From Candidatus Poribacteria bacterium (lineage in GTDB: Bacteria > Poribacteria > WGA-4E > WGA-3G): DNA of 64,000 bases. The DNA lies in NCBI GenBank assembly GCA_965215265.1, contig OZ244048.1, forward strand, positions 928,001 through 992,000. Reading direction: 5' to 3'. Positions within the stretch are counted from its first letter, which is position 1, and each line of letters starts with the position of its first letter. The notes under the pieces were generated by a model. That model was given only the letters and a program-made list of their open reading frames with translations, searched no databases and was not told the DNA's origin. This document shows, one piece after another, positions 19,041-34,857 of this stretch. Position numbers and translations under genes: made by a program.

Positions 19041-19793
19041 CTATAAAATCCCAAGCGGTGGTGTCACTACAATTTCCTCAGTCACCATGCCGAACGGTTG
19101 ACAGCAGATAGATACTACCGTTTGAGCGACATGCTCCGGTTTCAGCATCTGTTCGAAGTCCGGGTGCACCGGAATATCATCCCAAAAGGACGTATGTACT
19201 GAGCCAGGGAGGATGGCAGTTACCTTGATGTTATTTTGTCTAACTTCAGCGGATAAGACTTTTGTGAACGCCAACGCTCCTGCTTTAGCGGCGCAGTATG
19301 CACTTGACATTTCAAAGGGGACCTTGGCGGCAATTGAAAGAATATTGATAATCTGACCCTGCCCTTCAGCTAACATCGGTGGAAGCACGTACTTTGAACA
19401 GAGATAGACACCCTTTAAATTGACATTGAGCACACTGTCCCAATCCTCTGGGGCGAAATCCATAACAGGGCCGAATCGTCCGCCTCCAGCACTGTTAACT
19501 AAAATATCCACTTGTTGATAAGTCTCTAGTGTGCGTTGGATGAGTCGTTCTACAGATTCTTTTTGTGTGATGTCAGTAGGGACAGAGATGGCTTCCGTGC
19601 CGTTCTGCCGGAGCAACGTTATAACTTGTTCTAAATCGTCGGAGGTGCGTGCGGCGAGTACAAGTCTCGCTCCGGCTCCTGCCAAAGCGAGCGCTGTTGC
19701 CTTACCAATTCCTTTTGAGGCCCCGGTAATGATTGCAACCTTTTTGTCAAGCTGCGCTGGAGTGCTCTGCTGAACATGTGGCGTTGTTCTCAT
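19041..19793 (-). CDS. SDR family oxidoreductase (candidate sepiapterin reductase)
   Basis: TGASKGIG and YCAAK motifs; downstream of folE and PTPS. Confidence 0.85.
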   Translation of the reverse strand: MRTTPHVQQSTPAQLDKKVAIITGASKGIGKATALALAGAGARLVLAARTSDDLEQVITLLRQNGTEAISVPTDITQKESVERLIQRTLETYQQVDILVNSAGGGRFGPVMDFAPEDWDSVLNVNLKGVYLCSKYVLPPMLAEGQGQIINILSIAAKVPFEMSSAYCAAKAGALAFTKVLSAEVRQNNIKVTAILPGSVHTSFWDDIPVHPDFEQMLKPEHVAQTVVSICCQPFGMVTEEIVVTPPLGIL

Positions 19794-19844
19794 TGTCTCC
19801 CTCCCTACAGAAATGGCTAAAACGCGAGGAAGTCACGAACGAAA

Positions 19845-19960
19845 TAGATACCGTCACCGGCCCTGGACACGTCTCTACCCCCCAAACGTGCTGTATCGCT
19901 TCTGACGAGTTGAGAAACCTCGTCTACCGAGGTAGGGTGCCTTTCCGGGCCTGCACGTTG
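19845..19960. repeat. Cluster of GTAG-type REP-like hairpins
   Basis: GTAGACGAGGTTTCTCAACTCGTC (-) and GTAGGGTGCCTTTCCGGGC (+) lie back-to-back around CTACCGAGGTAG, enclosed by AACGTGC/GCACGTT; GTAGAGACG (-) nearby. Confidence 0.5.
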
Positions 19961-20002
19961 AAATGTCACCTGATTTTCATAATCCCCGGTATAGAGAACA
20001 CG

Positions 20003-20560
20003 TTAAGAGGCTTGAACGCATTGTAGGAATTCTGCACGGGTTGAGTTGTTCTCTCTAAACGTGCCGCGCATGACACTCGTGGTCATTCTCGGTTCTTGCT
20101 TTTCAACGCCGCGTGCCATCATACACATGTGTTGTCCTTCTATGATAACTGCGACACCTTGTGGTTCGAGTGCATTCTCTAACGCCTCAGCAATCTCGCG
20201 CGTGAGCCGTTCCTGAACTTGCAAGCGTCGGGCAAACATGTTAACAATACGCGGGATCTTACTCAGGCCGATGATCCGTTTCTCCGGTATGTATCCGACG
20301 TGACACTTACCCCAAAACGGTAGGATGTGATGTTCGCACAAACTGTAAAATTCAATGTCTTTGACAATGACCATTTCATCATAGTCCTCATCAAAGACTG
20401 CTTTGTTCAAAATCTTATCAATATCTTGCTGGTAGCCGCTGGTTAAAAATTCTATTGCTTTTGCGGCACGGTGTGGTGTTTTTACCAAGCCTTGACGTCC
20501 TGGGTCTTCTCCGATATCTTCCAAGATCTGTCTAAAGTGTTCTTCTAATGATAATTTCAA
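20003..20560 (-). CDS. folE: GTP cyclohydrolase I
   Basis: [23 protein letters not shown] and HMCMMARG motifs. Confidence 0.95.
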
Positions 20561-20565
20561 AAAAA

Positions 20566-21390
20566 CTACTCCCCATAGTAATCAAAATAGTTCTTTGGAG
20601 TTTCGCGTAATCGCAGACGGTGTAAAGTAACGGGTGCGACATTGGGCTGGAGTATATCCCAAAGGACCTTGACGAAGTTTTCCGAGGTCGGATTGAGAGT
20701 TTTAAACTCAGGTGTATCTAGATTGAGGTGTCTATAATCGAAGCGCGCGTAGACATGCTTTTGAACTGTCTCGTCGAGTAGGTTCAGACGTGCAACGAGC
20801 CCGGTTTTCGCGTCTACCGTGCCTTTCACGGTGACCTCAAGCACATAATTATGTCCGTGGCCTGCTGCATTGTTACACTTGCCGAAGATGTTGCGGTTCT
20901 CCGCGTCACTGAGGGCATGACTGTGCAGTCGATGCGCTGCACTAAATTCATAGACTTTGGTTAAGTAAACCATCTGTCGTTCTCCATAATAGTCAACAAA
21001 TTGGGTTGAATTCTGATATAGGCGTGCCCGATGGAGGAGCCCTTGTGGCAATACAGCAGCGAGCCGGTTCCAAATTTCAACAGCAATGTTTTCATTTGTG
21101 GGTTGGAGGTAGGGATTTTTGGAGAAAACAGGGTGCTGGTGGTTTAAGTGCTTATGATCATAGTTGGCAAGTACTTCTGTCTTCAAGACGGCATCCAAGG
21201 TCGTCAAATTGATAACCATTCCGTCTTCGCCAAGGTTACCGGTGAGCATCACTTCAAGCACATAATTATGCCCGTGGCTATTCGGATTGGCAGCGGGCCC
21301 ATAGCATTCAAAATTCTCAGCATCACTCAGTCCAGGGATGCGATGGTAATGTGATGCTTCAAAAGCAGTTTGCCGGGTTATGTAGTACAT
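20566..21390 (-). CDS. Tandem two-domain 6-pyruvoyl-tetrahydropterin synthase
   Basis: Two PTPS domains, each with HGHNY and T.EN; the second has CNNAAGHGH (Cx5HGH). Confidence 0.88.
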
Positions 21391-21419
21391 CGGTTTCCAC
21401 TGGATTCCTACGGTGGCTG

Positions 21420-21704
21420 TTAGCGCGCCGGGGTTACCATTTTATCACCGCTGGATTCATATTGAACCGCCATGAGCCATTCGCCGGTGCCGCGGAGTTG
21501 GACGTTGCATGCTTGCAACCAGGCTGCCAAGGTAGAACGATCGCGAGCTTCCCATTCGCAGAGCATCCTACCGGAGAGGGTATCGCACAAAACGCGAATG
21601 TTTCTGACATCGGCGGTTTCCGATTCGCGGAACCGCTTGAGCAGCCGTTCAACATCTTGGCGTGTCATGCAGGCGATCGCATGGGTCGTGACAAATTTAG
21701 GCAT
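21420..21704 (-). CDS. Small hypothetical protein (DUF4242-like)
   Basis: MPKFVTTH...GRMLCEWEARD pattern; co-oriented with neighbours. Confidence 0.55.
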   Translation of the reverse strand: MPKFVTTHAIACMTRQDVERLLKRFRESETADVRNIRVLCDTLSGRMLCEWEARDRSTLAAWLQACNVQLRGTGEWLMAVQYESSGDKMVTPAR

Positions 21705-21825
21705 AATTTTTTATGCACGCTGGTGCCCGGGGATTTGGAGCAGGTCGTGCCTCGTTTTTCTATAACCTACGGCATATCTCCCTTATCTCAAAGCAGAATA
21801 GATATACACTTAGAGGACTACGTGC

Positions 21826-22677
21826 TTATACGTCGCGAGCAATAGGTGCACCGACGAGATTTCCCCATTCTGTCCAGCTGCCGTCGTAATTTCGGACTTT
21901 ATCATATCCGAGTAGGTACTTCAGCGCAAACCAGGTATGGGATGAGCGTTCGCCGATCCGGCAATAAGCGATGGTTTCCTTGCTCGGATCAACACCTGCG
22001 CCACCGTAAATGGCTTCCAATTCGTCCCGAGATTTAAAGGTACCGTCTTCAGCAACAGCAGTCGCCCAAGGGATATTGGCTGCCCCGGGGATATGGCCGG
22101 CACGTTGTGCAGTTTCCGGGAGATCGGGTGGTGCGATGATTTCACCGGTAAATTCAGCGGGCGATCTGACATCAACGAGGTTAATGATGCCTTGCTCCAA
22201 CGTCGGTAAGATGTGTTCTTTCGTAGCCCGTACGTTGTCATCGGGAAACTTCGCTTGATATCCGGTCTTGGCGTAAGACGGGACGGCCGTAACGAGCTCA
22301 CGTCCCTCATCGATCCATTTTTGGCGGCCACCGTTCATCACTTTCAACCGGCTTTCATCGTGCCCGTAGTAACGGAATTGCCACAAGGCGTATGTAGCAA
22401 ACCAATTGTTATTGTCGCCATAAAAGATGATGGTGGTATCATTAGCGATGCCACTGTCGTTGCAGAGCGCCTCAAACTGTTCTTTTGTCAGAATATCGCG
22501 CCGGACCTGGTCGCAGAGTTGTGTCTGCCAATTGAGTCCGACCGCGCCTGCGATGTGTCCGTCGGCATAAGCGGTTGTATCAACATCAACTTCAAGCAGT
22601 CTAATTCCAGCGTCTTTCCCGTGTTGCGCTACCCACTCTGTGCTAACTAAGACATCAGGATTTGCATAATTAGCCAT
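21826..22677 (-). CDS. Sulfurtransferase (tandem rhodanese, SseA/CysA-like)
   Basis: GHIAGA, DVRSP.EF.G, YCRIGERS and YDGSWTEWG motifs; SD AAGGAG before ATG 22677. Confidence 0.92.
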   Translation of the reverse strand: MANYANPDVLVSTEWVAQHGKDAGIRLLEVDVDTTAYADGHIAGAVGLNWQTQLCDQVRRDILTKEQFEALCNDSGIANDTTIIFYGDNNNWFATYALWQFRYYGHDESRLKVMNGGRQKWIDEGRELVTAVPSYAKTGYQAKFPDDNVRATKEHILPTLEQGIINLVDVRSPAEFTGEIIAPPDLPETAQRAGHIPGAANIPWATAVAEDGTFKSRDELEAIYGGAGVDPSKETIAYCRIGERSSHTWFALKYLLGYDKVRNYDGSWTEWGNLVGAPIARDV

Positions 22678-22725
22678 TTCTTTTTTTATCTCCTTGTCTT
22701 TGATTTTTCTTATCAGGCTGTTTAT

Positions 22726-22754
22726 ATTATACCGTTCAGAATGCAATTTGTCAA
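22726..22754 (-). promoter_or_regulatory. Consensus sigma70 promoter for the sulfurtransferase
   Basis: TTGACA-17bp-TATAAT. Confidence 0.7.
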
Positions 22755-22840: not shown

Positions 22841-22884
22841 AATAAAGAAAGCCGCCGGGGCATCAGATAACGCCGGCGGCTTTG
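22841..22884 (-). terminator. Rho-independent terminator after the DUF4159 gene
   Basis: AAAGCCGCCGG / CCGGCGGCTTT stem followed by CTTTATT on the minus strand. Confidence 0.7.
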
Positions 22885-22901: not shown

Positions 22902-24485
22902 TTATAATCGAGTCTTAGGGACGCGTTTCGGTGGCGTTGCTGTGTTGCCAATAGAGGCAGTTTCCGGAATATAGTTGCTGTAATCAGAAATACTCCCGTG
23001 TGTCACTGCATAAATGACAATGTTGATAAGCTGCCGGGAGGCAGCGGGTGCAAATTCGTCCAATATCTTGTTCCTGTCCTGATAGTGACCAAAAAACGGT
23101 TTCTGCACTGCGCCGTCCATCACGTGTATCATCGCCTCTGTGTCTACGAGTACCGCCAATCTACCATCAATCAAAACGCCCTGCAATTGGCTATACGGTC
23201 CGTGGTGAAGGATAGTGTTTCCAATTTTTCGGACAGGAAACCGTAGAGGGCCGTTCAATTCATAGAAACTGTTATAGATGTCGTGATCTTGGGGTATGAC
23301 AGTGAGGTGGTACTCAGGCAGAATTTGCCGTAGGATTCGCCGTGCCGGTCGCATGGCCTCTTCGGTGTTCCCGTGTGTTGGCATATAGATAAACCCGCCA
23401 CGGTTGATAACATATTCACGAATGCGCTGCGCCTCCCGGGTAGTATAGCCTTTGGATGGGCGAGAACCTTGTGTCTGCCAGATCGGGTTTTTGAGGCTGA
23501 GCGTGCTGTTCTGGGAATTCATAATCGAGCCGGAGATCGGTTCCATGAAGATAATGGGTGATTCAAAAAACGCTGCGTCAGTGATTTGGACAGCATCAAC
23601 CAGCTGCGTTTGGACACCGGTATGTTCATTGAGTGAGTTGACTAAATAGGGCAGACCTGCCCCAAATCGGAGATGTCCGATGCCGCTGCCTCATATATCG
23701 AGGTCCGGATGGAGCGGGTCGTCCAGCCGGACGAGGTTCAACCGGCCGAGTATGTCCTTACCGCGGCCTTGAATGATGGCCCCGGGAGTCCCCTTCGGCA
23801 ATGACTGTACACCGTTTCCGAGCACAATGTTTTCCGTTACGTCTGACAGGGCTGCTCCGATGTTCGCAACGCCTGCGCCTTCAACCAGTGAGTTTAACCC
23901 CCTCTGATTTTTGGTATAGCCTTGGCTGACACCGCCTGCTGCGCCGAAAGCCCCGCGTCCTGTTCCCGTGCCGCTCCCTTCGGCTCTACTAGTACCAAGC
24001 CCCGCGTTTAAAGTGCTTGCTGTTCCCAAACCTGCAGGAGCAAGCGTGTCCGATGCAACCCGCAGGTCGGCGGCTGTAGAAAGCGGTTGTGAATCCTGAG
24101 TTTTGAGAGACGCTGCACCGGGAACGTTCACCGCCCGCCGTTTCGGGGCAGTTGTACCGGCTGCCATCGCCGGAGCCGCTGGCACCGCACTCAGTGAGGA
24201 TTTTGCCGGGCGGGCGACAACCGAACGCCGGGATGCCGCCTCAACTTGCTGCGTCACCGGCACCTCCAAATTCGGTGTCGGTGCAACAAATGGCTCCGGG
24301 ACCATCATCACCCGTGGCTTCGCTTGCGGCGGCGTGACCTTGAAAAAACTGACATCAATAGCATCCTGCTGCGTTTGATACTTGACAGAGATTGCCATAT
24401 ACGCTACGAGGACAGCCACGCATATATGGACGACAAGCGAAACCGTCCAGGCGAGATGTATACGATCTGTACTACGCGATTTCAT
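22902..24485 (-). CDS. Membrane-anchored DUF4159-domain protein with in-frame TGA at codon 265 (candidate selenoprotein)
   Basis: ORFs 23691-24485 and 22902-23546 are in the same frame, and the 48 codons between them are open and DUF4159-like (LVNSLNEHTGV...ITDAAFFESPIIFM); N-terminal TM helix plus Ala/Gly/Pro linker; IREYVINRGGF and HDIYNSFY motifs. Confidence 0.7.
23646..23693 (-). promoter_or_regulatory. Putative bacterial SECIS element
   Basis: UGA-GGCAGCGGC-[AUCGGA CAUC UCCGAU]-UU-GGGGCAGGUCUGCCC. Confidence 0.55.
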
Positions 24486-24621
24486 AATATTCCCTCCGTT
24501 GTCTGGCTCCTTTGAGAGATATGGCCCACCGGCATATAAAACTGTCTATTTCCATCTCACCGGCGGCCACTGATTGCCTAACGTGAGTTGAGAAAAGATG
24601 CGCGAAATTTACGTACCTATT

Positions 24622-24716
24622 ATTCTAACGATTTTTCAAGTTTTTGTCAACACTTTTATTTTCAAGAACACCGCTGCACGATTAAGTTTGACACGTTGGT
24701 AATATTGCGTTATACT
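24622..24716. promoter_or_regulatory. Divergent sigma70 promoters for the DUF4159 gene and livG
   Basis: Minus strand TTGACA-17-TAGAAT (24650-24622); plus strand TTGACA-17-TATACT (24688-24716). Confidence 0.65.
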
Positions 24717-27623: not shown

Positions 27624-30404
27624 TTAGAACAGTGTCTGCCTCCGTTGCGCTAAGCCCATCTCCTGCTCTATATCTCGCCACTCCGACACGAGCAGGTTGT
27701 AGTCTGACGCACGTTCCGCATCTCCGCACCTCTCATAGTGGGCATACAACACGCGCGCTAAACGCACCGCTGACTCGCTCTCTCGCATCCCAAGCCCTAC
27801 CCTAACGCACCCCTGAATCCCACCGCTAAACTCTATACCCGACAGATGCCAAACCATCCGCTGACACCCCTCCCACGCCGTCATCCTTTCACTGTGCTCG
27901 CGCGCTGCCAACTCTCCGCCTCGCAGCAACCGAACCTGACCTCGTTCCGCGAGCAGCACCTTGTCGTGCAGTGCGGCGATGTCCACGCCTTTCGCTTTTG
28001 ACAGTCCATCGGCATCTCCGAAAGTGCCTACCGTGTAATCGTGCTGCTGCAGCCACGTCAGACAGAACTGACTCTCCGCATCCAGTTCGCCTGTCTCTTT
28101 TTCATGATAAGCCACGATTTCGTGATTGATGTGCCGAAGTGCCTCGCGTATAGAAATGAGTTCTCCGCTGATTCGCGTCACCTGTCGATAGCGGGAGTAG
28201 ACAGCCATCCCTGGGCCGATAGCGGCTTGCGCCAAATCTACAGGTCTGATGTTTGCGGTGCGTGTGAGCCTGTCAAGCGCAGGTGGCATTGCGGCTTTGA
28301 GTTCTTTCAAGAAGGCGTTACGGATGATGAGAGGTGCATCTTCCGGGCGTGGGCGGCACACCAGCAGAATAGAGGAGGCGAGCGCATTTACCTGCGTCTT
28401 GAGTCCCGTCGGACGTTCGGTGCGTATGGGCCAAGTCGCCACGATTTGAAAGCCTGCGTTGACGAGCGCAGCGAGCATCGTCTCCCAACCGGTGGAGGCG
28501 TTATCCTCGCGTTTCGCGGCCTGCTGTTTGTAGGCGTAGAAGATGAGGGTAGGAAACCTGTCAGAGCAGTCCTGCCGCAGCCGCAGCAAAACTTTGCTGA
28601 GCAGTTCTTCAAACCGCTCTCGCGCCCCCTCAAACCTGGGCGCAGCAATAATCTCTTCACTCTTCGGTGTCATCATTCCGCCGAACAACTCTGGATAAGT
28701 GTCGCGAAGCAACGGGCGCAGCCAGACGTAGAAAAAGTCTGACAAATCGGCGTAGTTAATGTTGTCGTAGTAGGGCGGATCTGTGACGATAACAGGTCTC
28801 TCCTTAGCATGCGGTGTGTTGGTAGCGTCTGCCTGATACACGGCGCCGCTGTTCGCGGTGGCGGGTAAATGCTCAATCACTTTTGCAATCCATTCCACCT
28901 GTGCCATCCAATTCTGTGTTGAATTTGAGAAGGGGTTGCCTTCCACGAAGTCCCACGTCATCGGAATGGCTTGGCGTGCGAAAACCGGCGGAATGTTCTC
29001 GCCTTGGTTTTCCCAAAAAGTGAAACTGCAGTGGGCTTCAGCAGTTCTCCCGATAGCGAGTGCGAGATAGGTGCAAACCGCATCGGCGTAGCTTTCCTCC
29101 GCGCCGTCTTGTAGGATACGATGGCGGACTTCTGGCAACAGGTCGCTGAAAGTGGTTAGTGCCGTGAGTTGGCGTTCAGTGAAGAGTTCATGCCAATGTG
29201 TCATGCCGTAACCTAGACTGCTAACCTTTGGCGTATTCATTATGGCTTGCCTTGGCCGCCATTTTGGAATAGCAGCCATTGCCGCTTGCACGTGTTCGTC
29301 AGTGGGTGACAGGAACAACTTTTTGCGTTGAGTAGGTGGACTCTCGGCCACTATCGCCGTCATCATCTCCCCCATCTTCCCGCGTTTCGCTTGTTCGCGA
29401 AGATAAGCCAATTTAACTGCCGTGCCGCACGCGCAGCAGTGCGCGCCCGTACGCCTCACCGTCGGCATCGGCACACCCGTCTTTGAAGATTGCACCACCC
29501 ACGATAGCGTGTTGGTGTCTCTGTCCACTACAGGCCTTGTCCAATATTCATTGCCACGCCTCTTTGACAACTGAAAGCTTTTCATCAGCGGCTTCTGAAG
29601 CCCGCAGGCAGGGTTGCTGCACGGCACCGTGCGCGCCCAGAGCCACGCCACAACGGTGGCAGCCGTGCCGTCTCGCAACCGCACTGGCGGATAGAGGTGC
29701 CCGATGCGTTGGGATGCTTGTTCGCGCAGCCACTGGCCGTAGTGGCGGATGTCGGCAGCCAAGCCCGCAGTGCCACGCCAGCGCTGCTCTGTGACGATGC
29801 TGTTGGCTGAATCCGCTTTGAGATAGAGCGGTGGATGGTTATGAAATCTCGGCGGCAATTCAATCATCGCCTTCGTGAGCAGCACAGGGAGTGGATTTAG
29901 ATCCGAGCCGCGGGCATGCACGCCCAATCGTTGTGCTTCAAGGGGGATGGAGCCCCCGCCACAGAACGCATCGTAGACAGCAGGACCGTGTTCTCGCAGA
30001 TAGTTTAGCACCGCCCCCGGTTCCTTCTCAAACCGCTGCCGAAAAGCCGTCAACTCTTCGCCGTTGTTGCGTGCCACAGACAAAGCAATCTCGTAGCGTG
30101 CCTCGGCTAACAAGTTGTCATCGGTGCTATTTTTCCAAACCACAAGCCGGCTAAGCAGGCGATGGAGCCTCTCGCGTTCGGCGTTCTGCGCCGCTTCGGT
30201 TGGGAACTCGGCGGGGCAGTCGCCCGGATCATCTACAAGGCAGGCGAAGATGACGGCGCGACAAGCGGCGAGTGGGCGGCGCGCCCAATAGCGGTGCAGC
30301 GTTGAAGGGTGTCCATGTGTCAGCGAGGCATCCTTTGCCGATTCCGCGTTGATGGCTGGCAGCGGGATATTCACCTCAATCAGTTTTTTGCGATAAACGG
30401 GCAT
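27624..30404 (-). CDS. DUF1156-domain adenine-specific DNA methyltransferase with Zn finger
   Basis: KKLIEV..PL, LHRYWARRPL, DAFCGGGSIP (SAM binding), TDPPYY and CSNPAC/CCAC motifs. Confidence 0.88.
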   Translation of the reverse strand: MPVYRKKLIEVNIPLPAINAESAKDASLTHGHPSTLHRYWARRPLAACRAVIFACLVDDPGDCPAEFPTEAAQNAERERLHRLLSRLVVWKNSTDDNLLAEARYEIALSVARNNGEELTAFRQRFEKEPGAVLNYLREHGPAVYDAFCGGGSIPLEAQRLGVHARGSDLNPLPVLLTKAMIELPPRFHNHPPLYLKADSANSIVTEQRWRGTAGLAADIRHYGQWLREQASQRIGHLYPPVRLRDGTAATVVAWLWARTVPCSNPACGLQKPLMKSFQLSKRRGNEYWTRPVVDRDTNTLSWVVQSSKTGVPMPTVRRTGAHCCACGTAVKLAYLREQAKRGKMGEMMTAIVAESPPTQRKKLFLSPTDEHVQAAMAAIPKWRPRQAIMNTPKVSSLGYGMTHWHELFTERQLTALTTFSDLLPEVRHRILQDGAEESYADAVCTYLALAIGRTAEAHCSFTFWENQGENIPPVFARQAIPMTWDFVEGNPFSNSTQNWMAQVEWIAKVIEHLPATANSGAVYQADATNTPHAKERPVIVTDPPYYDNINYADLSDFFYVWLRPLLRDTYPELFGGMMTPKSEEIIAAPRFEGARERFEELLSKVLLRLRQDCSDRFPTLIFYAYKQQAAKREDNASTGWETMLAALVNAGFQIVATWPIRTERPTGLKTQVNALASSILLVCRPRPEDAPLIIRNAFLKELKAAMPPALDRLTRTANIRPVDLAQAAIGPGMAVYSRYRQVTRISGELISIREALRHINHEIVAYHEKETGELDAESQFCLTWLQQHDYTVGTFGDADGLSKAKGVDIAALHDKVLLAERGQVRLLRGGELAAREHSERMTAWEGCQRMVWHLSGIEFSGGIQGCVRVGLGMRESESAVRLARVLYAHYERCGDAERASDYNLLVSEWRDIEQEMGLAQRRQTLF

Positions 30405-30443
30405 AATGATGCCTTAGTCCCTCTCTCGACAGGGCTAGCGTTC

Positions 30444-31427
30444 CTATCGGTTTAGGCTTCGCGCGAAACTATCAAGACTCTCCGCCTGAACGGCGGCGAG
30501 GTGCAGCTGCTCAAGGTGTTGTAAATCGGTAATGCGTTGCAACGCCGGTGCTAACGCCTTGACAGTATCTGGTGAAAACTTAGCGCTCAGCACCGCCAAT
30601 GTATTTTTGATGGTGCTCTCTTTCGCACCTTGTTCTATGCCTTTTTCTAAACCTTGTTCTATGCCTCGTTCCATTCCTCGTTCTATGCCTTGCTCTATGC
30701 CTCGTTCTATACCTTGTTCTATACCTTGTTCTATACCTTGCGCGATAAATTCATCGCGTAACAGTTGGAAATATTTAGATTCTCGCATCAGTCCCTCCGG
30801 TATCAGACGTTTGAAAAGCGACGCGTCATGCACAATACCCCCGAAAACCGACAGCGCACACAGTAAATCCCCTTGCGTCCCCTCATCCAAACTCGTTCCT
30901 GTCGTCGCGGTTATACATCTTTGAAGCCAAGCCGCCGAGTCCAAACCTTCAGGCGGTTTCATCAATGGTGTGAGCGGCAACAGCCCAGGCGCAGCCAACG
31001 CCAAAATAGATTCACCTTCTACTTCTATCAGACGGATAACCTTATACTGCAACCGATAGGCGTAGCCACACAGACTATATTCATACACACCCCCATCCCT
31101 TCTACCCGCTGACGGATGAAAGTACAGCACATTCGAATACACCGGCAGCTGGTATTCCCCGAGCAGATACCCGTGATACGCTGCGTTTCGCGCCCACATC
31201 GGTTTGGGTGTGCTATCTCGCACCTGCAACTCTATGTGTAGGATAGCCTCTTCGTTATCAATACGGATACGCTTGGTGCTATCGACACGCTGCCCGATAA
31301 CCACCTGTTGTTCCGTGTCAAGGTTTTCAAGCACGTCAACATTGTCCACCCCGAGTATAAACCGTGAGATGTCGTCGGCATGCTCCGTCAACAACTCTTT
31401 TGCCATATTATCATAGTCCTGTGCCAT
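30444..31427 (-). CDS. Rpn family recombination-promoting nuclease (PD-(D/E)XK) with C-terminal GIEQ repeats
   Basis: RVD...ILHIELQ, VIRL.E and LLPLTPLM motifs; EQG repeats and DUF4351-like tail. Confidence 0.8.
   Translation of the reverse strand: MAQDYDNMAKELLTEHADDISRFILGVDNVDVLENLDTEQQVVIGQRVDSTKRIRIDNEEAILHIELQVRDSTPKPMWARNAAYHGYLLGEYQLPVYSNVLYFHPSAGRRDGGVYEYSLCGYAYRLQYKVIRLIEVEGESILALAAPGLLPLTPLMKPPEGLDSAAWLQRCITATTGTSLDEGTQGDLLCALSVFGGIVHDASLFKRLIPEGLMRESKYFQLLRDEFIAQGIEQGIEQGIERGIEQGIERGMERGIEQGLEKGIEQGAKESTIKNTLAVLSAKFSPDTVKALAPALQRITDLQHLEQLHLAAVQAESLDSFARSLNR
30628..30740. repeat. 12-bp coding tandem repeat, about 9 units (G-I-E-Q/R)
   Basis: CCT(T/C)GTTCTAT(A/G) units. Confidence 0.85.
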
Positions 31428-31433
31428 AAAATT

Positions 31434-31463
31434 ATTATACACCGGTCCAGTGAAAAATGTCAA
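31434..31463 (-). promoter_or_regulatory. Promoter of the Rpn gene (predicted leaderless mRNA)
   Basis: TTGACA-18-TATAAT ending 6 nt before ATG 31427. Confidence 0.6.
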
Positions 31464-31530
31464 CGTTGAAAGTTGTGCAGATTCTTAGGAGCTATCCAAT
31501 ATGCAAATGTGTATAAAACGTCATCGTTTT

Positions 31531-34500
31531 TCAGCTGTGCTTGAATTCGGCGTTGAGGTATTCGCTGTTCTGCCTGACGGCGCGCTCGGTGTGTTCAGAG
31601 AACCCGTCTGATTTATCCGCGGTGACGGTGATTTCAACGGTTACGTTTGCGCCATCAGTCTGCAGTGTTCGGACAATCTCGTCTTGGATGGTCTCTATAT
31701 CGGCGAGGAAAGGCTGTTCTAACTGCAAGGACTTGGTAACGACAAGGCGCGTCGGGCCATTTGTTGGTGTAGATTCGGATTGTTCATCGGTTTCACTGGC
31801 TTGAGGTCCTAAACCGGGTTCCGGCGGGGCCGGTTCTACAAGGTGCTCTCCCTTGAGTTGTTTGGCAACTTCAGGGTTTATGAGTACCGCAGTAGTGTCG
31901 TGATTTATTGAGAGCGTGCCGACCTGTTCCATAAACCGTGGATTTTGGTATTTTTCATTCTCATAAGCATGGGCGTATCCGAATGTGCCTACTGCAACCC
32001 CTTCTCTAATACAAGTTGCCAAGATGTTCCGGTCTCTTAATCTCGGCATGTAGACATGTGTCGCGAGGAGTTCCCAGAGTTTGTCTATCTGAATGTGGTT
32101 TTGGTAGATGTCACTACTCCAGACGTATTGTTGCAGTTTTTCGTCAAATATGGCAGTGGTTATCCTGGTGATAATTGCTTCGTCGTAGATGAATTTATCC
32201 CGTGCGCGTTGGATTATCCTACCGTCTTCAGCAGGTTCTATTGCGTCTGCCGAGAAGCCGTAGTCGTCTTTCTGCGGGTCGGCTTGGGTAGGGGCAACTG
32301 TCCACCGGTATGCTTTGAACAGGGCAGTTGTCACTCTCTCGTCAGCGGATTCAAGTTTGTCCGTGGCCTGATCGAGCCGTGTGCCTGTGAGATTGGTGAT
32401 TGCACTATGTAGTTCATCGCCATTCATAATGGCGTTCCAAGCGAGATAGTTTTTGATAAGATTTTTCAGTTCGCGTAGCTCGTCCCGTCGTGCTGCGATG
32501 AAAAGGAGGGTGTTCCTGAAGGTGCGCTGCGCTTGCCCATCGCTGCAGTATATCAGCATGTTGTGTGCGGCGGCGTGTGCAGTGTTTTGCTCTTTTTCGC
32601 GGCTTGGCAAGGATGCCTGCGGCGGCAGGATGACGTACTGAACCGTTTCGGAATCCTTCACCTCAGTTGGTGATGCCGGACAGACTATCACGTTCGGGTC
32701 GCGTCCGATGACTTTTTTTAACCGTGAAATGATCTCCCGGTAGATATCATCTTCTGTGTACTGCTCTGCACGATCGTTTGCGACTTTATTGAGGTTCTCT
32801 TGCGTATGGAAATAGTGTCTGTCGTCTAGATTATAGAGAAAGTAGAGGTTGCCGGTCATTCTGCGGAGTGCGTCGTTGTAAATTGAGACGGTTTGTCCCG
32901 GTTCAACCACACCGAGGTGAATCTGGCGCTCAGAGATGCCCCTGACGGCCCCGGTATTTGTGCTGCCGAGGAAAATCGCACGTGCGAGGCGACGCGCTGC
33001 ACTGCCAACCTCTATGAACGTTTTAGAGGTCTTATCGATCTGGTCTGTGCGTGACCCGTGGCTGTCGACCTCTTTTACGACTGGGTCCCAATTCCCACCG
33101 GATCTGCTGAGCAGCCTAGTGAATTCATCAGCGAGTGCTGGATCGTCTAAGGTGAGATTGCCCGGCATTATCAAAGGCGAGGCGTCCTGTTGTTGATAGA
33201 GACGAGAAATACAACTCGCCATGATGCGTAGTACCCCGCGGGTGCGCTGAAACCCGGGGATGACTACCCAATCCTGAGAGAGGCGGTCGAATATCTCCGG
33301 ATGGATTGGGTAACACGCTTTCATGCGCTGGAAATAATTAGCCTCGCTGGCTTCATCCGGGTACTCGCGCCGTGAATTCTGGTACATTTTCCGGAAGGCA
33401 TCACAGGTCAGATCTCGTTCAGTCTCATCCTTAATGCCGCGGAAGAGTCGCCGACGCACCACTTGAAAAGCGTTGTCAACCTCTAACGGTATAGAGACGG
33501 CATCAACCCGTTCAAGTATCGACTCAAGACCATCCATCACACTCATGCCGCCTTCGCCACCTGCCTGGACGTGCCCTTCCGGTAACGTTGCGACAAGCGT
33601 GACATCGTTAGTTCTTTTAACAGATTCTGTGAGCGTCTGGAAAAAAGTGTAGATACTTTCTTGGGTGACACCTTGTACGTTGCGAACGTAAGCGACAAGT
33701 TCATCTATTAAGATAACGGAGGGCCCAACGTATTCAAAAAGTTCATCCAGCTGCTTGCCACCGGGGGATATGCCTTCTCGCGCAGCGTCCGCGATGAATT
33801 CGTAAGCATCCTGCCCCCCGAGCTGATCTGCCATTCTGCCCCAGAGCGTGTTCAGCGGATCTCCACGTGTCGTTTTATCCGCATCCGTTGTAGACAGATA
33901 GGTACCGACAAGCACGGAGACGTTGGCACTGAGCGCTGTATCTGCTTCCCATTCTGCTTCCTGCATGATCTTGTGAACGTCTGCGTGCAATTGTGCGTAT
34001 TCCTCATCCGGGGGCGGCTGCGTGAGTGCGTCTGCTCCGGTCACGAGATGGTAGAGTGCGATGAGACTATGCGTTTTTCCACCGCCGAACCCGGTTTTGA
34101 GTTGAATAACGGGGTCTCCGCCCTTGCTGCCCAGTCGACTCAAGGTATTAAGCAACAGTTGTCGAAGCCCAGGTGTAATGTATGTCTGACTGAAAAAGAG
34201 CCCGGCTTCTCCGTATTCAGCAGCTTTCGCTTTTCCCTCAAATACCTCTTGGAGATCTGCCGCGAATTCGGATTTCCGGAAGGTGCCTTCAATGACATCG
34301 TTGTTTGGCGATATCACCTGGTGCCATGGCGTGAGCTCAGTCGGCTTTCTACGTGGCAGCTTGGGTTTTACTTCCGTGGCCGGAACTGCACTCGTGAATA
34401 ATTTATCTCGGATCGCTTCTACCTGCTGCTTCTGTTCTGGAGCATTGATTTGTCCAAGTACCTCTGCTATGTCATGAAGGCGCGCGAGGGCGTATTCCCT

Positions 34501-34806
34501 AGAGAGGTCTTCAGCACCGGGGTGGGAAACTCTATTTCTTGCTTCTGTTATGAGACCTATTGCACTGCGAATATCCCGGTCAGGGTCAAAACGGTGTGCG
34601 AAGGCATTCTGCCAGTACCTCCTGAAAAGCGGCGGGAAATGGTTAATATCTATATCCACGCTGTTTTCGAAACGATCTTCTGTCGCGAGTGTGTGTACCG
34701 TTTTCAAGTTTCGAAAAACAAATGGACGCATCGCATCACGGTAGAGGTTGAGTGCATTATAGAGTGCATCTTGGTTAGGGCGGTTTGCGTCTGGCACGTC
34801 TGTCAT
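31531..34806 (-). CDS. DUF499 AAA+ ATPase with N-terminal Swt1-like HEPN domain
   Basis: HEPN RNRVSH (Rx4H); SEFAADL, Walker A GFGGGKTH, Walker B ILIDE, YPIHPE and FQRTRGVLR; SD AGGAGA. Confidence 0.88.
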   Translation of the reverse strand: MTDVPDANRPNQDALYNALNLYRDAMRPFVFRNLKTVHTLATEDRFENSVDIDINHFPPLFRRYWQNAFAHRFDPDRDIRSAIGLITEARNRVSHPGAEDLSREYALARLHDIAEVLGQINAPEQKQQVEAIRDKLFTSAVPATEVKPKLPRRKPTELTPWHQVISPNNDVIEGTFRKSEFAADLQEVFEGKAKAAEYGEAGLFFSQTYITPGLRQLLLNTLSRLGSKGGDPVIQLKTGFGGGKTHSLIALYHLVTGADALTQPPPDEEYAQLHADVHKIMQEAEWEADTALSANVSVLVGTYLSTTDADKTTRGDPLNTLWGRMADQLGGQDAYEFIADAAREGISPGGKQLDELFEYVGPSVILIDELVAYVRNVQGVTQESIYTFFQTLTESVKRTNDVTLVATLPEGHVQAGGEGGMSVMDGLESILERVDAVSIPLEVDNAFQVVRRRLFRGIKDETERDLTCDAFRKMYQNSRREYPDEASEANYFQRMKACYPIHPEIFDRLSQDWVVIPGFQRTRGVLRIMASCISRLYQQQDASPLIMPGNLTLDDPALADEFTRLLSRSGGNWDPVVKEVDSHGSRTDQIDKTSKTFIEVGSAARRLARAIFLGSTNTGAVRGISERQIHLGVVEPGQTVSIYNDALRRMTGNLYFLYNLDDRHYFHTQENLNKVANDRAEQYTEDDIYREIISRLKKVIGRDPNVIVCPASPTEVKDSETVQYVILPPQASLPSREKEQNTAHAAAHNMLIYCSDGQAQRTFRNTLLFIAARRDELRELKNLIKNYLAWNAIMNGDELHSAITNLTGTRLDQATDKLESADERVTTALFKAYRWTVAPTQADPQKDDYGFSADAIEPAEDGRIIQRARDKFIYDEAIITRITTAIFDEKLQQYVWSSDIYQNHIQIDKLWELLATHVYMPRLRDRNILATCIREGVAVGTFGYAHAYENEKYQNPRFMEQVGTLSINHDTTAVLINPEVAKQLKGEHLVEPAPPEPGLGPQASETDEQSESTPTNGPTRLVVTKSLQLEQPFLADIETIQDEIVRTLQTDGANVTVEITVTADKSDGFSEHTERAVRQNSEYLNAEFKHS

Positions 34807-34828
34807 TCTCCTAAATGGGCTTTTTTTC

Positions 34829-34857
34829 ATCATAGCAGCAATTGCAAGTTTTGTCAA
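34829..34857 (-). promoter_or_regulatory. Promoter of the DUF499 operon
   Basis: TTGACA-17-TATGAT with TGn extension. Confidence 0.6.

Follow-up and report, generated by a model that had tools for sequence, protein, structure and literature searches.

Two open reading frames (ORFs) that share a frame and are parted by one stop codon may be two genes or one. This question is raised by a locus on the minus strand of a 64,000-nucleotide (nt) stretch of a Candidatus Poribacteria genome (GenBank assembly GCA_965215265.1, contig OZ244048.1, positions 928,001 to 992,000), referred to here in its entirety as the window. An ORF at 24485..23691 (264 amino acids, ending in TGA) is followed in the same frame by an ORF at 23546..22902 (214 amino acids), and the gap between them consists of the TGA at 23693-23691 and 48 open codons. 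A first-pass annotation proposed that this TGA encodes selenocysteine (Sec, U) in a protein with a DUF4159 domain, under the direction of a two-hairpin selenocysteine insertion sequence (SECIS). The coordinates and translation bear out the arrangement of the two ORFs, and reading the TGA as U joins them into a single frame of 527 residues with U at position 265 (window 24485-22902, minus strand). We consider it very probable, from the comparative sequence evidence given below, that this is one gene and that it encodes a 527-residue selenoprotein. The conserved TGA, the cysteine (Cys) counterparts, the Sec machinery of the genome and the constraint on the RNA downstream of the UGA all point to the proposed Sec265.

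Conservation of the in-frame UGA and the Sec machinery

The TGA is a property of the family rather than of a single genome. A six-frame search of 40 related genomes returned 16 further matches with 49-73% identity, each containing exactly one in-frame TGA, and two additional matches without a stop. In a survey of the whole phylum (176 Poribacteria genomes, matches to the window protein at E<=1e-90), matches were found in 77 genomes: 54 of 111 in the window's own family (plus the genome itself), 22 of 29 in a second family, and none of 35 in the other nine families. The 101 matches comprise 85 with one in-frame TGA, 15 that are full length and stop-free, and one partial match that falls short of the site. 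In all 52 Sec forms that were read as DNA, which are 45-73% identical to the window protein, the TGA occupies the same position in the motif HPxxD[IF]-U-G[SNH]G[IV]G. The first-pass annotation had suggested that the aligned codon of homologues would be informative; besides these 52 orthologues with TGA, it is TGT or TGC, both Cys, in every one of the stop-free forms, which are 15 distinct paralogues.

A search of 1.84 billion cluster representatives also recovered full-length proteins with Cys at the Sec site (P0002, P0003 and P0004). Twelve database entries stop exactly one residue short of the site, and others begin about 20 residues past it. Gene calls that end at the UGA are the usual form of truncation for selenoprotein genes. 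In both respects, the alternation of Sec and Cys forms and the gene calls cut at the UGA, the DUF4159 family resembles known selenoprotein families. A quick maximum-likelihood tree of 69 rows, with three generic paralogues as the outgroup, places 13 of the 15 Cys forms in one clade, with the Sec form L118 as its sister, and nests the remaining two within a Sec clade, such that both Cys groups lie among Sec forms. The fewest Sec/Cys changes on this tree are two. If the relic hairpins of the Cys forms described below are also considered, the simplest account of the tree is that Cys replaced Sec twice and the SECIS then decayed, a direction of change that we infer.

The 48 codons 3′ of the TGA are the best-conserved segment of the protein, with a mean pairwise identity of 0.84 versus 0.56-0.79 elsewhere, indicating that the stretch after the TGA is translated. 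The first-pass annotation had taken these codons as the start of the DUF4159 domain; alignment to paralogues agrees with this, whereas the Pfam match itself covers only residues 347-493.

The genome contains a complete Sec system. SelA (515 bits) and SelD (359 bits) are present, the SelB wing domain lies in a frame of 656 amino acids, and a gene for tRNA-Sec (selC, 80 bits) is found directly 3′ of selB, so that all four of the genes that the first-pass annotation had named for checking (selA, selB, selC and selD) are accounted for. The selD gene carries an in-frame TGA of its own (KCAG-U-ASK). Across the phylum, SelA is found in 164 of 176 genomes, and in 130 of the 133 of good quality. A scan of the genome for a TGA with a G-loop hairpin between open frames, with candidates then checked by Pfam, identified three further genes in which a Pfam domain spans the TGA at the position of a redox Cys (Table 1).

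The same genome also has an 843-codon frame (G000:C1:1710402-1712930, minus strand; candidate at G000:C1:1712006) with an in-frame TGA in the sequence DDESC-U-GTGK. A hairpin with a GGUC loop lies 17 nt beyond this TGA, and the C-terminal part of the frame encodes an AhpC/redoxin domain. This “SCUG” frame is a possible selenoprotein, unvalidated, with no Pfam or family model across its TGA.

The RNA element 3′ of the UGA and competing explanations

Downstream of the TGA are 9 nt (23690-23682), hairpin 1 (23681-23666), the dinucleotide UU and then GGGGCAGGUCUGCCC, which forms hairpin 2. This is the succession of 9 nt, a 6-base-pair (bp) hairpin, 2 nt and a second hairpin that had been read from the sequence at the outset. 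Synonymous diversity was scored in 340 columns of a codon alignment of 39 Sec forms. Only 11 columns in the gene have zero synonymous diversity, and eight of them lie 4-14 codons 3′ of the UGA (ATC, CTC, CGA, GGG, GCA, GGT, CTG and CCC). The lowest of 265 windows of 11 codons begins 4 codons 3′ of the UGA, with a mean diversity of 0.083, compared with 0.42 for the median window. Variation is seen at the third position of a His codon in the hairpin-1 loop, at that of a Phe codon in the linker joining hairpins 1 and 2, and in the three codons that make up the 9-nt spacer. The stem codons of hairpin 1 (ATC, GGA, CTC and CGA) are nearly fixed; its loop varies (CAUC, CACC, AAUU) and contains no G. 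Both hairpins are recovered by RNAalifold. An outer stem enclosing the two, CAGCG/CGCUG, appeared in some RNAfold outputs and was rejected, being broken in the window and several other sequences and dropped by RNAalifold.

The comparison of Sec with Cys forms is consistent with this pattern. In hairpin 2, GGGGCA-GGTC-TG is kept in 52 of 52 Sec forms, with variation confined to one G-C/G-U pair and the outermost pair. Among the 15 Cys forms, hairpin 2 is altered in 11 and unchanged in four; the loop is GGTT in six and GGAC in one, and the stem is changed in four (GGGGCG, TATCC, and GGGGTC twice). These comparisons of aligned sequences indicate that both hairpins are under RNA-level constraint and that this constraint is lost in the Cys forms.

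Hairpin 2 has a counterpart in the E. coli K-12 gene fdhF, which reads TGA, 11 nt and GGTTGCAGGTCTGCACC. The 10-nt core GCAGGTCTGC, forming the apical helix GCA-GGUC-UGC, is identical in hairpin 2, and GCA GGT CTG stands in the same codon frame in both genes, where both elements are coding and lie just after the UGA. The GGUC loop of fdhF, closed by an A-U pair on a GC-rich helix, is present in hairpin 2 as well. The fdhF sequence therefore confirms the helix, the 11-nt spacing and the identical core that the first-pass annotation had cited, as well as the difference it had conceded: the fdhF helix folds with a bulged U, whereas the hairpin-2 stem is perfect. The loop G and U and the bulged U are SelB contacts in E. 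coli fdhF. The two elements also differ in that the helix begins 11 nt from the UGA in fdhF and 26-27 nt from it in the DUF4159 gene. The 9 + 2 unpaired nt of the latter would equal the fdhF spacing, provided that hairpin 1 folds. The gap region of fdhF is the lower stem of one long hairpin, whereas the DUF4159 gene has a separate conserved hairpin of 16 nt there. Hairpin 1 may plausibly be a folded spacer that leaves 9 + 2 unpaired nt as in fdhF.

If decoding follows the E. coli mechanism, SelB-GTP-Sec-tRNASec would serve the ribosome at UGA265, the hairpin with the GGUC loop, starting 26-27 nt downstream, would hold SelB, and the smaller first hairpin would occupy the 16 nt between, leaving 9 + 2 unpaired nt from the UGA to the helix. 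In the three other validated selenoprotein genes of the genome the hairpin begins 9-10 nt, and its loop 16-18 nt, after the UGA; hairpin 1 of the DUF4159 gene, beginning 9 nt after the UGA, is placed like these hairpins. For selD, a SECIS picked out by eye (GGCUC-CGGGU-GAGCU, -4.6 kcal/mol) differs from the optimal RNAfold structure and was left out of this comparison.

The bacterial SECIS (bSECIS) model of bSECISearch, as summarised in the Fig. 2 legend of PMC13188914, has a loop of 3-9 nt, a stem of 4-16 bp, G[G/U] opening the loop, a spacing of 16-37 nt and a minimum free energy of <= -7.5. Hairpin 2 agrees with that description on every count (loop of 4 nt opening with GG, stem of 6-7 bp, spacing of 33 nt, -9.6 kcal/mol). 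Its spacing is near the upper limit of the model, which does not provide for another conserved hairpin in the interval from the UGA to the SelB helix. Since hairpin 2 alone satisfies the published model, a new class of SECIS is unnecessary. The proposal of a two-hairpin SECIS holds insofar as both hairpins show synonymous-site constraint. A covariance model of the two-hairpin element found no copy in the genome other than that of the gene itself.

Several observations weigh against the selenoprotein interpretation or its RNA component. The single-sequence fold is unremarkable (z = -1.08, with 25 of 200 shuffles folding as well), so that any signal above chance comes from the comparative data. 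None of the 12 base pairs shows a compensatory double change, and shuffles give the same values. The two hairpins encode a conserved peptide, IGHLRFGAGLP, and selection on the protein therefore accounts for part of their nucleotide conservation. Because the Cys forms are closely related (13 of 15 in one clade), their 11 altered hairpins reflect only a few events. The 33-nt spacing is far longer than the 16-18 nt of the three other genes. Rfam gave no match in the whole window at gathering thresholds, and only chance-level matches to microRNAs and small RNAs at 23560-23760 with relaxed thresholds. Finally, the Sec loop is unreliable in the AlphaFold model described below (predicted local distance difference test, pLDDT, <50; model residues 64-70).

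The lack of compensatory changes follows from the near invariance of the stems, in which the one-sided changes all preserve pairing (A-U to G-U in 6 of 32 rows and G-C to G-U in 6 of 32) and two cells are unpaired. Covariation neither supports nor contradicts the two-hairpin structure, for which the support comes from folding energy, the conservation of synonymous sites and the difference between Sec and Cys forms. A metagenome scan with P0007, aimed at the divergent clade of P0004, P0005 and P0007, produced one Poribacteria-like Sec form (L141) and otherwise generic DUF4159 genes, and yielded no divergent SECIS that could show covariation.

Three other explanations of the UGA were considered. 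The one that survives best, which we nevertheless regard as improbable, is that the codon is read as a standard amino acid (Trp, Gly or Cys by a near-cognate tRNA, or under genetic code 4 or 25) with no selenocysteine involved. Selenium in the protein is predicted from sequence, and some read-through signals are likewise downstream hairpins. However, TGA serves as an ordinary stop elsewhere in the window, as the first-pass annotation had noted: 2 of the 13 ORFs there that have Pfam support end in it, as do many of the orthologues. In addition, wherever another residue stands in place of the UGA it is Cys, the hairpin-2 loop matches the GGUC at which SelB binds in fdhF, and the genome has a complete Sec system and four other Sec genes.

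That the UGA is a true stop, giving a membrane-anchored fragment of 264 residues and a DUF4159 fragment of 214 residues from the ATG at 23546, or only one of these, is very unlikely. ORF finders and public gene calls do read the locus in this way, as reflected in the 12 database entries that end one residue before the site and those that start about 20 residues after it. The uninterrupted Cys forms argue against it, and so does the conservation of the 48 codons from the stop to the ATG, which exceeds that of any other segment of the protein. The downstream ORF would also miss the first strands of the domain, and the synonymous constraint right after the UGA would have no role.

A pseudogene, or a TGA introduced in sequencing or assembly, is hardly credible even though the first-pass annotation worried about a TGG-to-TGA mutation and no orthologue at E<=1e-90 was found in the sister genome from the same genus, because the same TGA stands in 52 of 52 orthologues from two families with purifying selection on both sides, and because contigs from three other studies (X6, X8 and X9) cover the TGA at 23691-23693 and the hairpins with no differing letter, a fourth contig (X5) ending at 23694 without bridging the site. 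The mutation was suspected because DUF4159 proteins often have Trp near the site; the distant paralogues concerned (about 33% identity) bear this Trp (DWW) and lack the entire 9-10-residue Sec loop (SDW---WAD), so that the worry does not apply.

The DUF4159 domain and a candidate active centre

The predicted selenoprotein matches Pfam DUF4159 (PF13709) with 66.7 bits (cut-off 25.9) over residues 347-493, corresponding to profile positions 65-201 only; no NCBIfam model matches it. An AlphaFold model of residues 200-527, built with 80 aligned sequences, has a predicted template modelling (TM) score of 0.84. The only clear structural match is 4i66 (Hoch_4089 from Haliangium ochraceum), with a profile E of 4.5e-29, a Foldseek E of 7.9e-10 and a TM score of 0.70 normalised by target. 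This protein is itself a DUF4159 member of unknown function, and shares its fold with the selenoprotein model. Class I glutamine-amidotransferase-like folds gave only weak Foldseek matches (E 0.01-0.2). Those enzymes have a Cys-His-Glu triad on the nucleophile elbow; in the protein studied here, the strand-turn-helix spanning 365-376 bears His371, a position that is Cys in 37 of 71 generic relatives. The DUF4159 domain appears to have a glutamine-amidotransferase-like alpha/beta fold.

The protein keeps the features common to the DUF4159 family, namely His401 and the E351/R356/Y358 motif. It differs from the family in a Gly-rich Sec/Cys loop of 9-10 residues inserted after the first beta-hairpin, in the extra segments LRFP.R at 414-419 and W336, and in having His/His where the commonest pair of the family is Cys/Cys (positions 371 and 454). 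Within the subfamily, U/C265, H371, H401 and H454 are invariant in 69 members and H259 is found in 68 of the 69. Among 71 generic DUF4159 representatives (alignment A3), Cys occupies position 371 in 37 and position 454 in 33, and the two positions, about 83 residues apart, switch together (C/C in 31 rows and H/H in five); H401 is kept in 66 of the 71. This coupled Cys/Cys-to-His/His switch beside a near-invariant His hints at a metal or redox site in DUF4159. Residues 265, 371, 401 and 454 each follow a beta-strand in the AlphaFold model. In this fold class the sheet edge after the strands is the ligand-binding side. It is possible, although we put this forward tentatively, that the selenol of Sec265 serves, together with the histidines, in a metal-binding or redox centre, two Cys having been exchanged for His and Sec recruited from a new loop. 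The common selenoprotein motifs are CxxU, UxxC and CU, whereas the sequence here is U-G-S-G without a nearby partner Cys.

The N-terminus has K2, R4 and R8 followed by about 22 hydrophobic residues (approximately 12-34). This suggests a single-pass membrane anchor with the N-terminus in the cytoplasm, in which case the DUF4159 domain is probably outside the cytoplasmic membrane. The topology with the N-terminus inside is supported by the sigma-fused paralogues described in the next section, in which a complete extracytoplasmic function (ECF) sigma factor is N-terminal to the same helix and domain.

Sigma-fused paralogues, gene features and significance

Some paralogues are fused to a sigma factor. 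These are single ORFs containing Sigma70_r2 and r4_2 domains, one transmembrane helix and the DUF4159 domain; they are Cys forms, with one Sec form (L118). The fusions are about 700-760 amino acids long (L108:7683-9959 on the minus strand in genome G032, P0003, P0017, P0018 and P0037) and are found among generic DUF4159 relatives as well as within the Sec/Cys subfamily. The fusion gene of G032 clusters with two Sec paralogues, a generic DUF4159 gene and genes for PD40 beta-propeller proteins. Compared with membrane-tethered ECF sigma factors, the window protein has only about 11 residues before the helix and no sigma or anti-sigma domain. Its identity as an anti-sigma factor was considered and rejected: about 11 residues precede the helix, there is no adjacent ECF sigma gene, and the neighbours encode ABC ATPases and a rhodanese. 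Because sister genes fuse the same Sec/Cys domain through one membrane helix to an ECF sigma factor, the window protein could be imagined as a selenium-dependent transmembrane sensor, in which Sec265 would act as ligand or nucleophile of a rebuilt centre with His371, His401 and His454 in an extracytoplasmic DUF4159 signal module, in combination with a two-part SECIS with a spacer hairpin. We offer this composite picture as speculation that is unlikely to be right in full.

The features of the gene and the other selenoprotein genes of the genome are listed in Table 1. The gene has its own promoter-like site, Shine-Dalgarno sequence and terminator-like hairpin. The terminator-like stem was not called by an automated scan, whose loop limit of 8 is exceeded by its 14-nt loop.

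Table 1. Features of the predicted DUF4159 selenoprotein gene (window positions) and further genes of the same genome with an in-frame TGA (positions prefixed G000:C1)
Feature	Position	Strand	Basis
Sigma-70-like promoter candidate, TTGACA-17-TAGAAT	24622..24650	-	11/12, consensus match only
Shine-Dalgarno sequence GGAGG, 7 nt 5′ of ATG	24493..24497	-	Read from sequence
Codons 1-264: short N-terminus, hydrophobic helix (~12-34), Ala/Pro/Gly-rich linker, first strands of the C-terminal domain	23694..24485	-	Translation, AlphaFold model
UGA, predicted selenocysteine codon 265	23691..23693	-	TGA in 52/52 orthologues read, Cys in 15 paralogues
9-nt spacer GGCAGCGGC (Gly-Ser-Gly), third codon positions vary	23682..23690	-	Sequence and codon alignment
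Hairpin 1, AUCGGA-CAUC-UCCGAU, -5.7 kcal/mol	23666..23681	-	Folding and codon alignment
Hairpin 2, UGGGGCA-GGUC-UGCCCUA, -9.6 kcal/mol, candidate SelB-binding SECIS helix	23647..23664	-	Folding, alignment, fdhF comparison
Hairpin-2 loop GGUC	23657-23654	-	33 nt 3′ of UGA
Codons 266-527: remainder of inserted loop and DUF4159 domain	22905..23690	-	Translation, Pfam, alignments
Pfam DUF4159 match, residues 347-493	23447-23007	-	Pfam
His371, subfamily-invariant	23375-23373	-	Subfamily alignment
His401, family-wide	23285-23283	-	Family alignment
His454, subfamily-invariant	23126-23124	-	Subfamily alignment
TAA stop	22902..22904	-	Read from sequence
Terminator-like GC stem GCCGCCGG / CCGGCGGC, 14-nt loop, then T-rich run	22841..22880	-	Read by eye
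Thioredoxin_7 + TPR (WUSSC)	G000:C1:4806041-4807054	-	Model spans in-frame TGA, same genome
UGSC family	G000:C1:570233-570769	+	Model spans in-frame TGA, same genome
AhpC/TSA (TWUP)	G000:C1:3574016-3574519	-	Model spans in-frame TGA, same genome
SelD	G000:C1:4044300-4045226	+	Pfam or NCBIfam model spans in-frame TGA, same genome

Directly downstream of the selenoprotein gene, at window 19041-22746 on the minus strand, are genes for a two-domain rhodanese, a 274-amino-acid 6-pyruvoyl-tetrahydropterin synthase (PTPS) ORF with two PTPS stretches, GTP cyclohydrolase I and a short-chain dehydrogenase, which together resemble a pterin-synthesis cluster. In 43 of 45 family-f1-type Poribacteria loci, a rhodanese gene follows the orthologue at a distance of no more than about 2 kb. 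In the window it is preceded by a promoter-like sequence of its own, TTGACA-17-TATAAT (12/12 match, 22754-22726), and a rhodanese gene is absent beside the f3 orthologues. For these two reasons the rhodanese was rejected as an operon partner, and its association is treated as synteny only. Further along the window, 27624-34857 on the minus strand encodes a DUF1156 protein (926 amino acids), a 339-amino-acid ORF without a Pfam family and a DUF499 protein (1108 amino acids). A stretch in the DUF1156 gene (about 28834) is near-identical to a second site of the genome, G000:C1:4278162, which suggests that this three-gene block is duplicated, wholly or in part.

A full-text literature search found no paper combining DUF4159 and selenocysteine, although the supplements of recent prediction papers and databases may list the family. 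In these searches, DUF4159 and PF13709 turned up only in a Pfam database paper, and the sole paper with both Poribacteria and a selenoprotein concerns hydrogenases. The text of a 2026 review of prokaryotic selenoproteomes (PMC13188914) has no DUF4159, PF13709, UGSG or UGxG entry, and nothing in its table of families matches. The selenoprotein family proposed here from sequence is thus apparently previously unreported, and would combine ordinary bacterial decoding with an unusual SECIS layout.

Such a family adds to the selenoproteins of a phylum of uncultivated sponge symbionts, on a fold with no known function or Sec member. As for annotation, no fewer than 85 genes across the 176 genomes are currently split into two ORFs, the database entries are truncated, and a family model is needed. 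Relative to fdhF, the candidate SelB-binding helix is displaced by a further 15 nt from the UGA, with a second conserved hairpin in between, and represents a natural SECIS experiment; if the two-part SECIS with a dedicated spacer hairpin is true, this architecture would lie outside the current bacterial SECIS model. For the DUF4159 family itself, the Sec/Cys site would mark the functional centre, and the switch from Cys/Cys to His/His suggests a metal or redox site open to experimental test.

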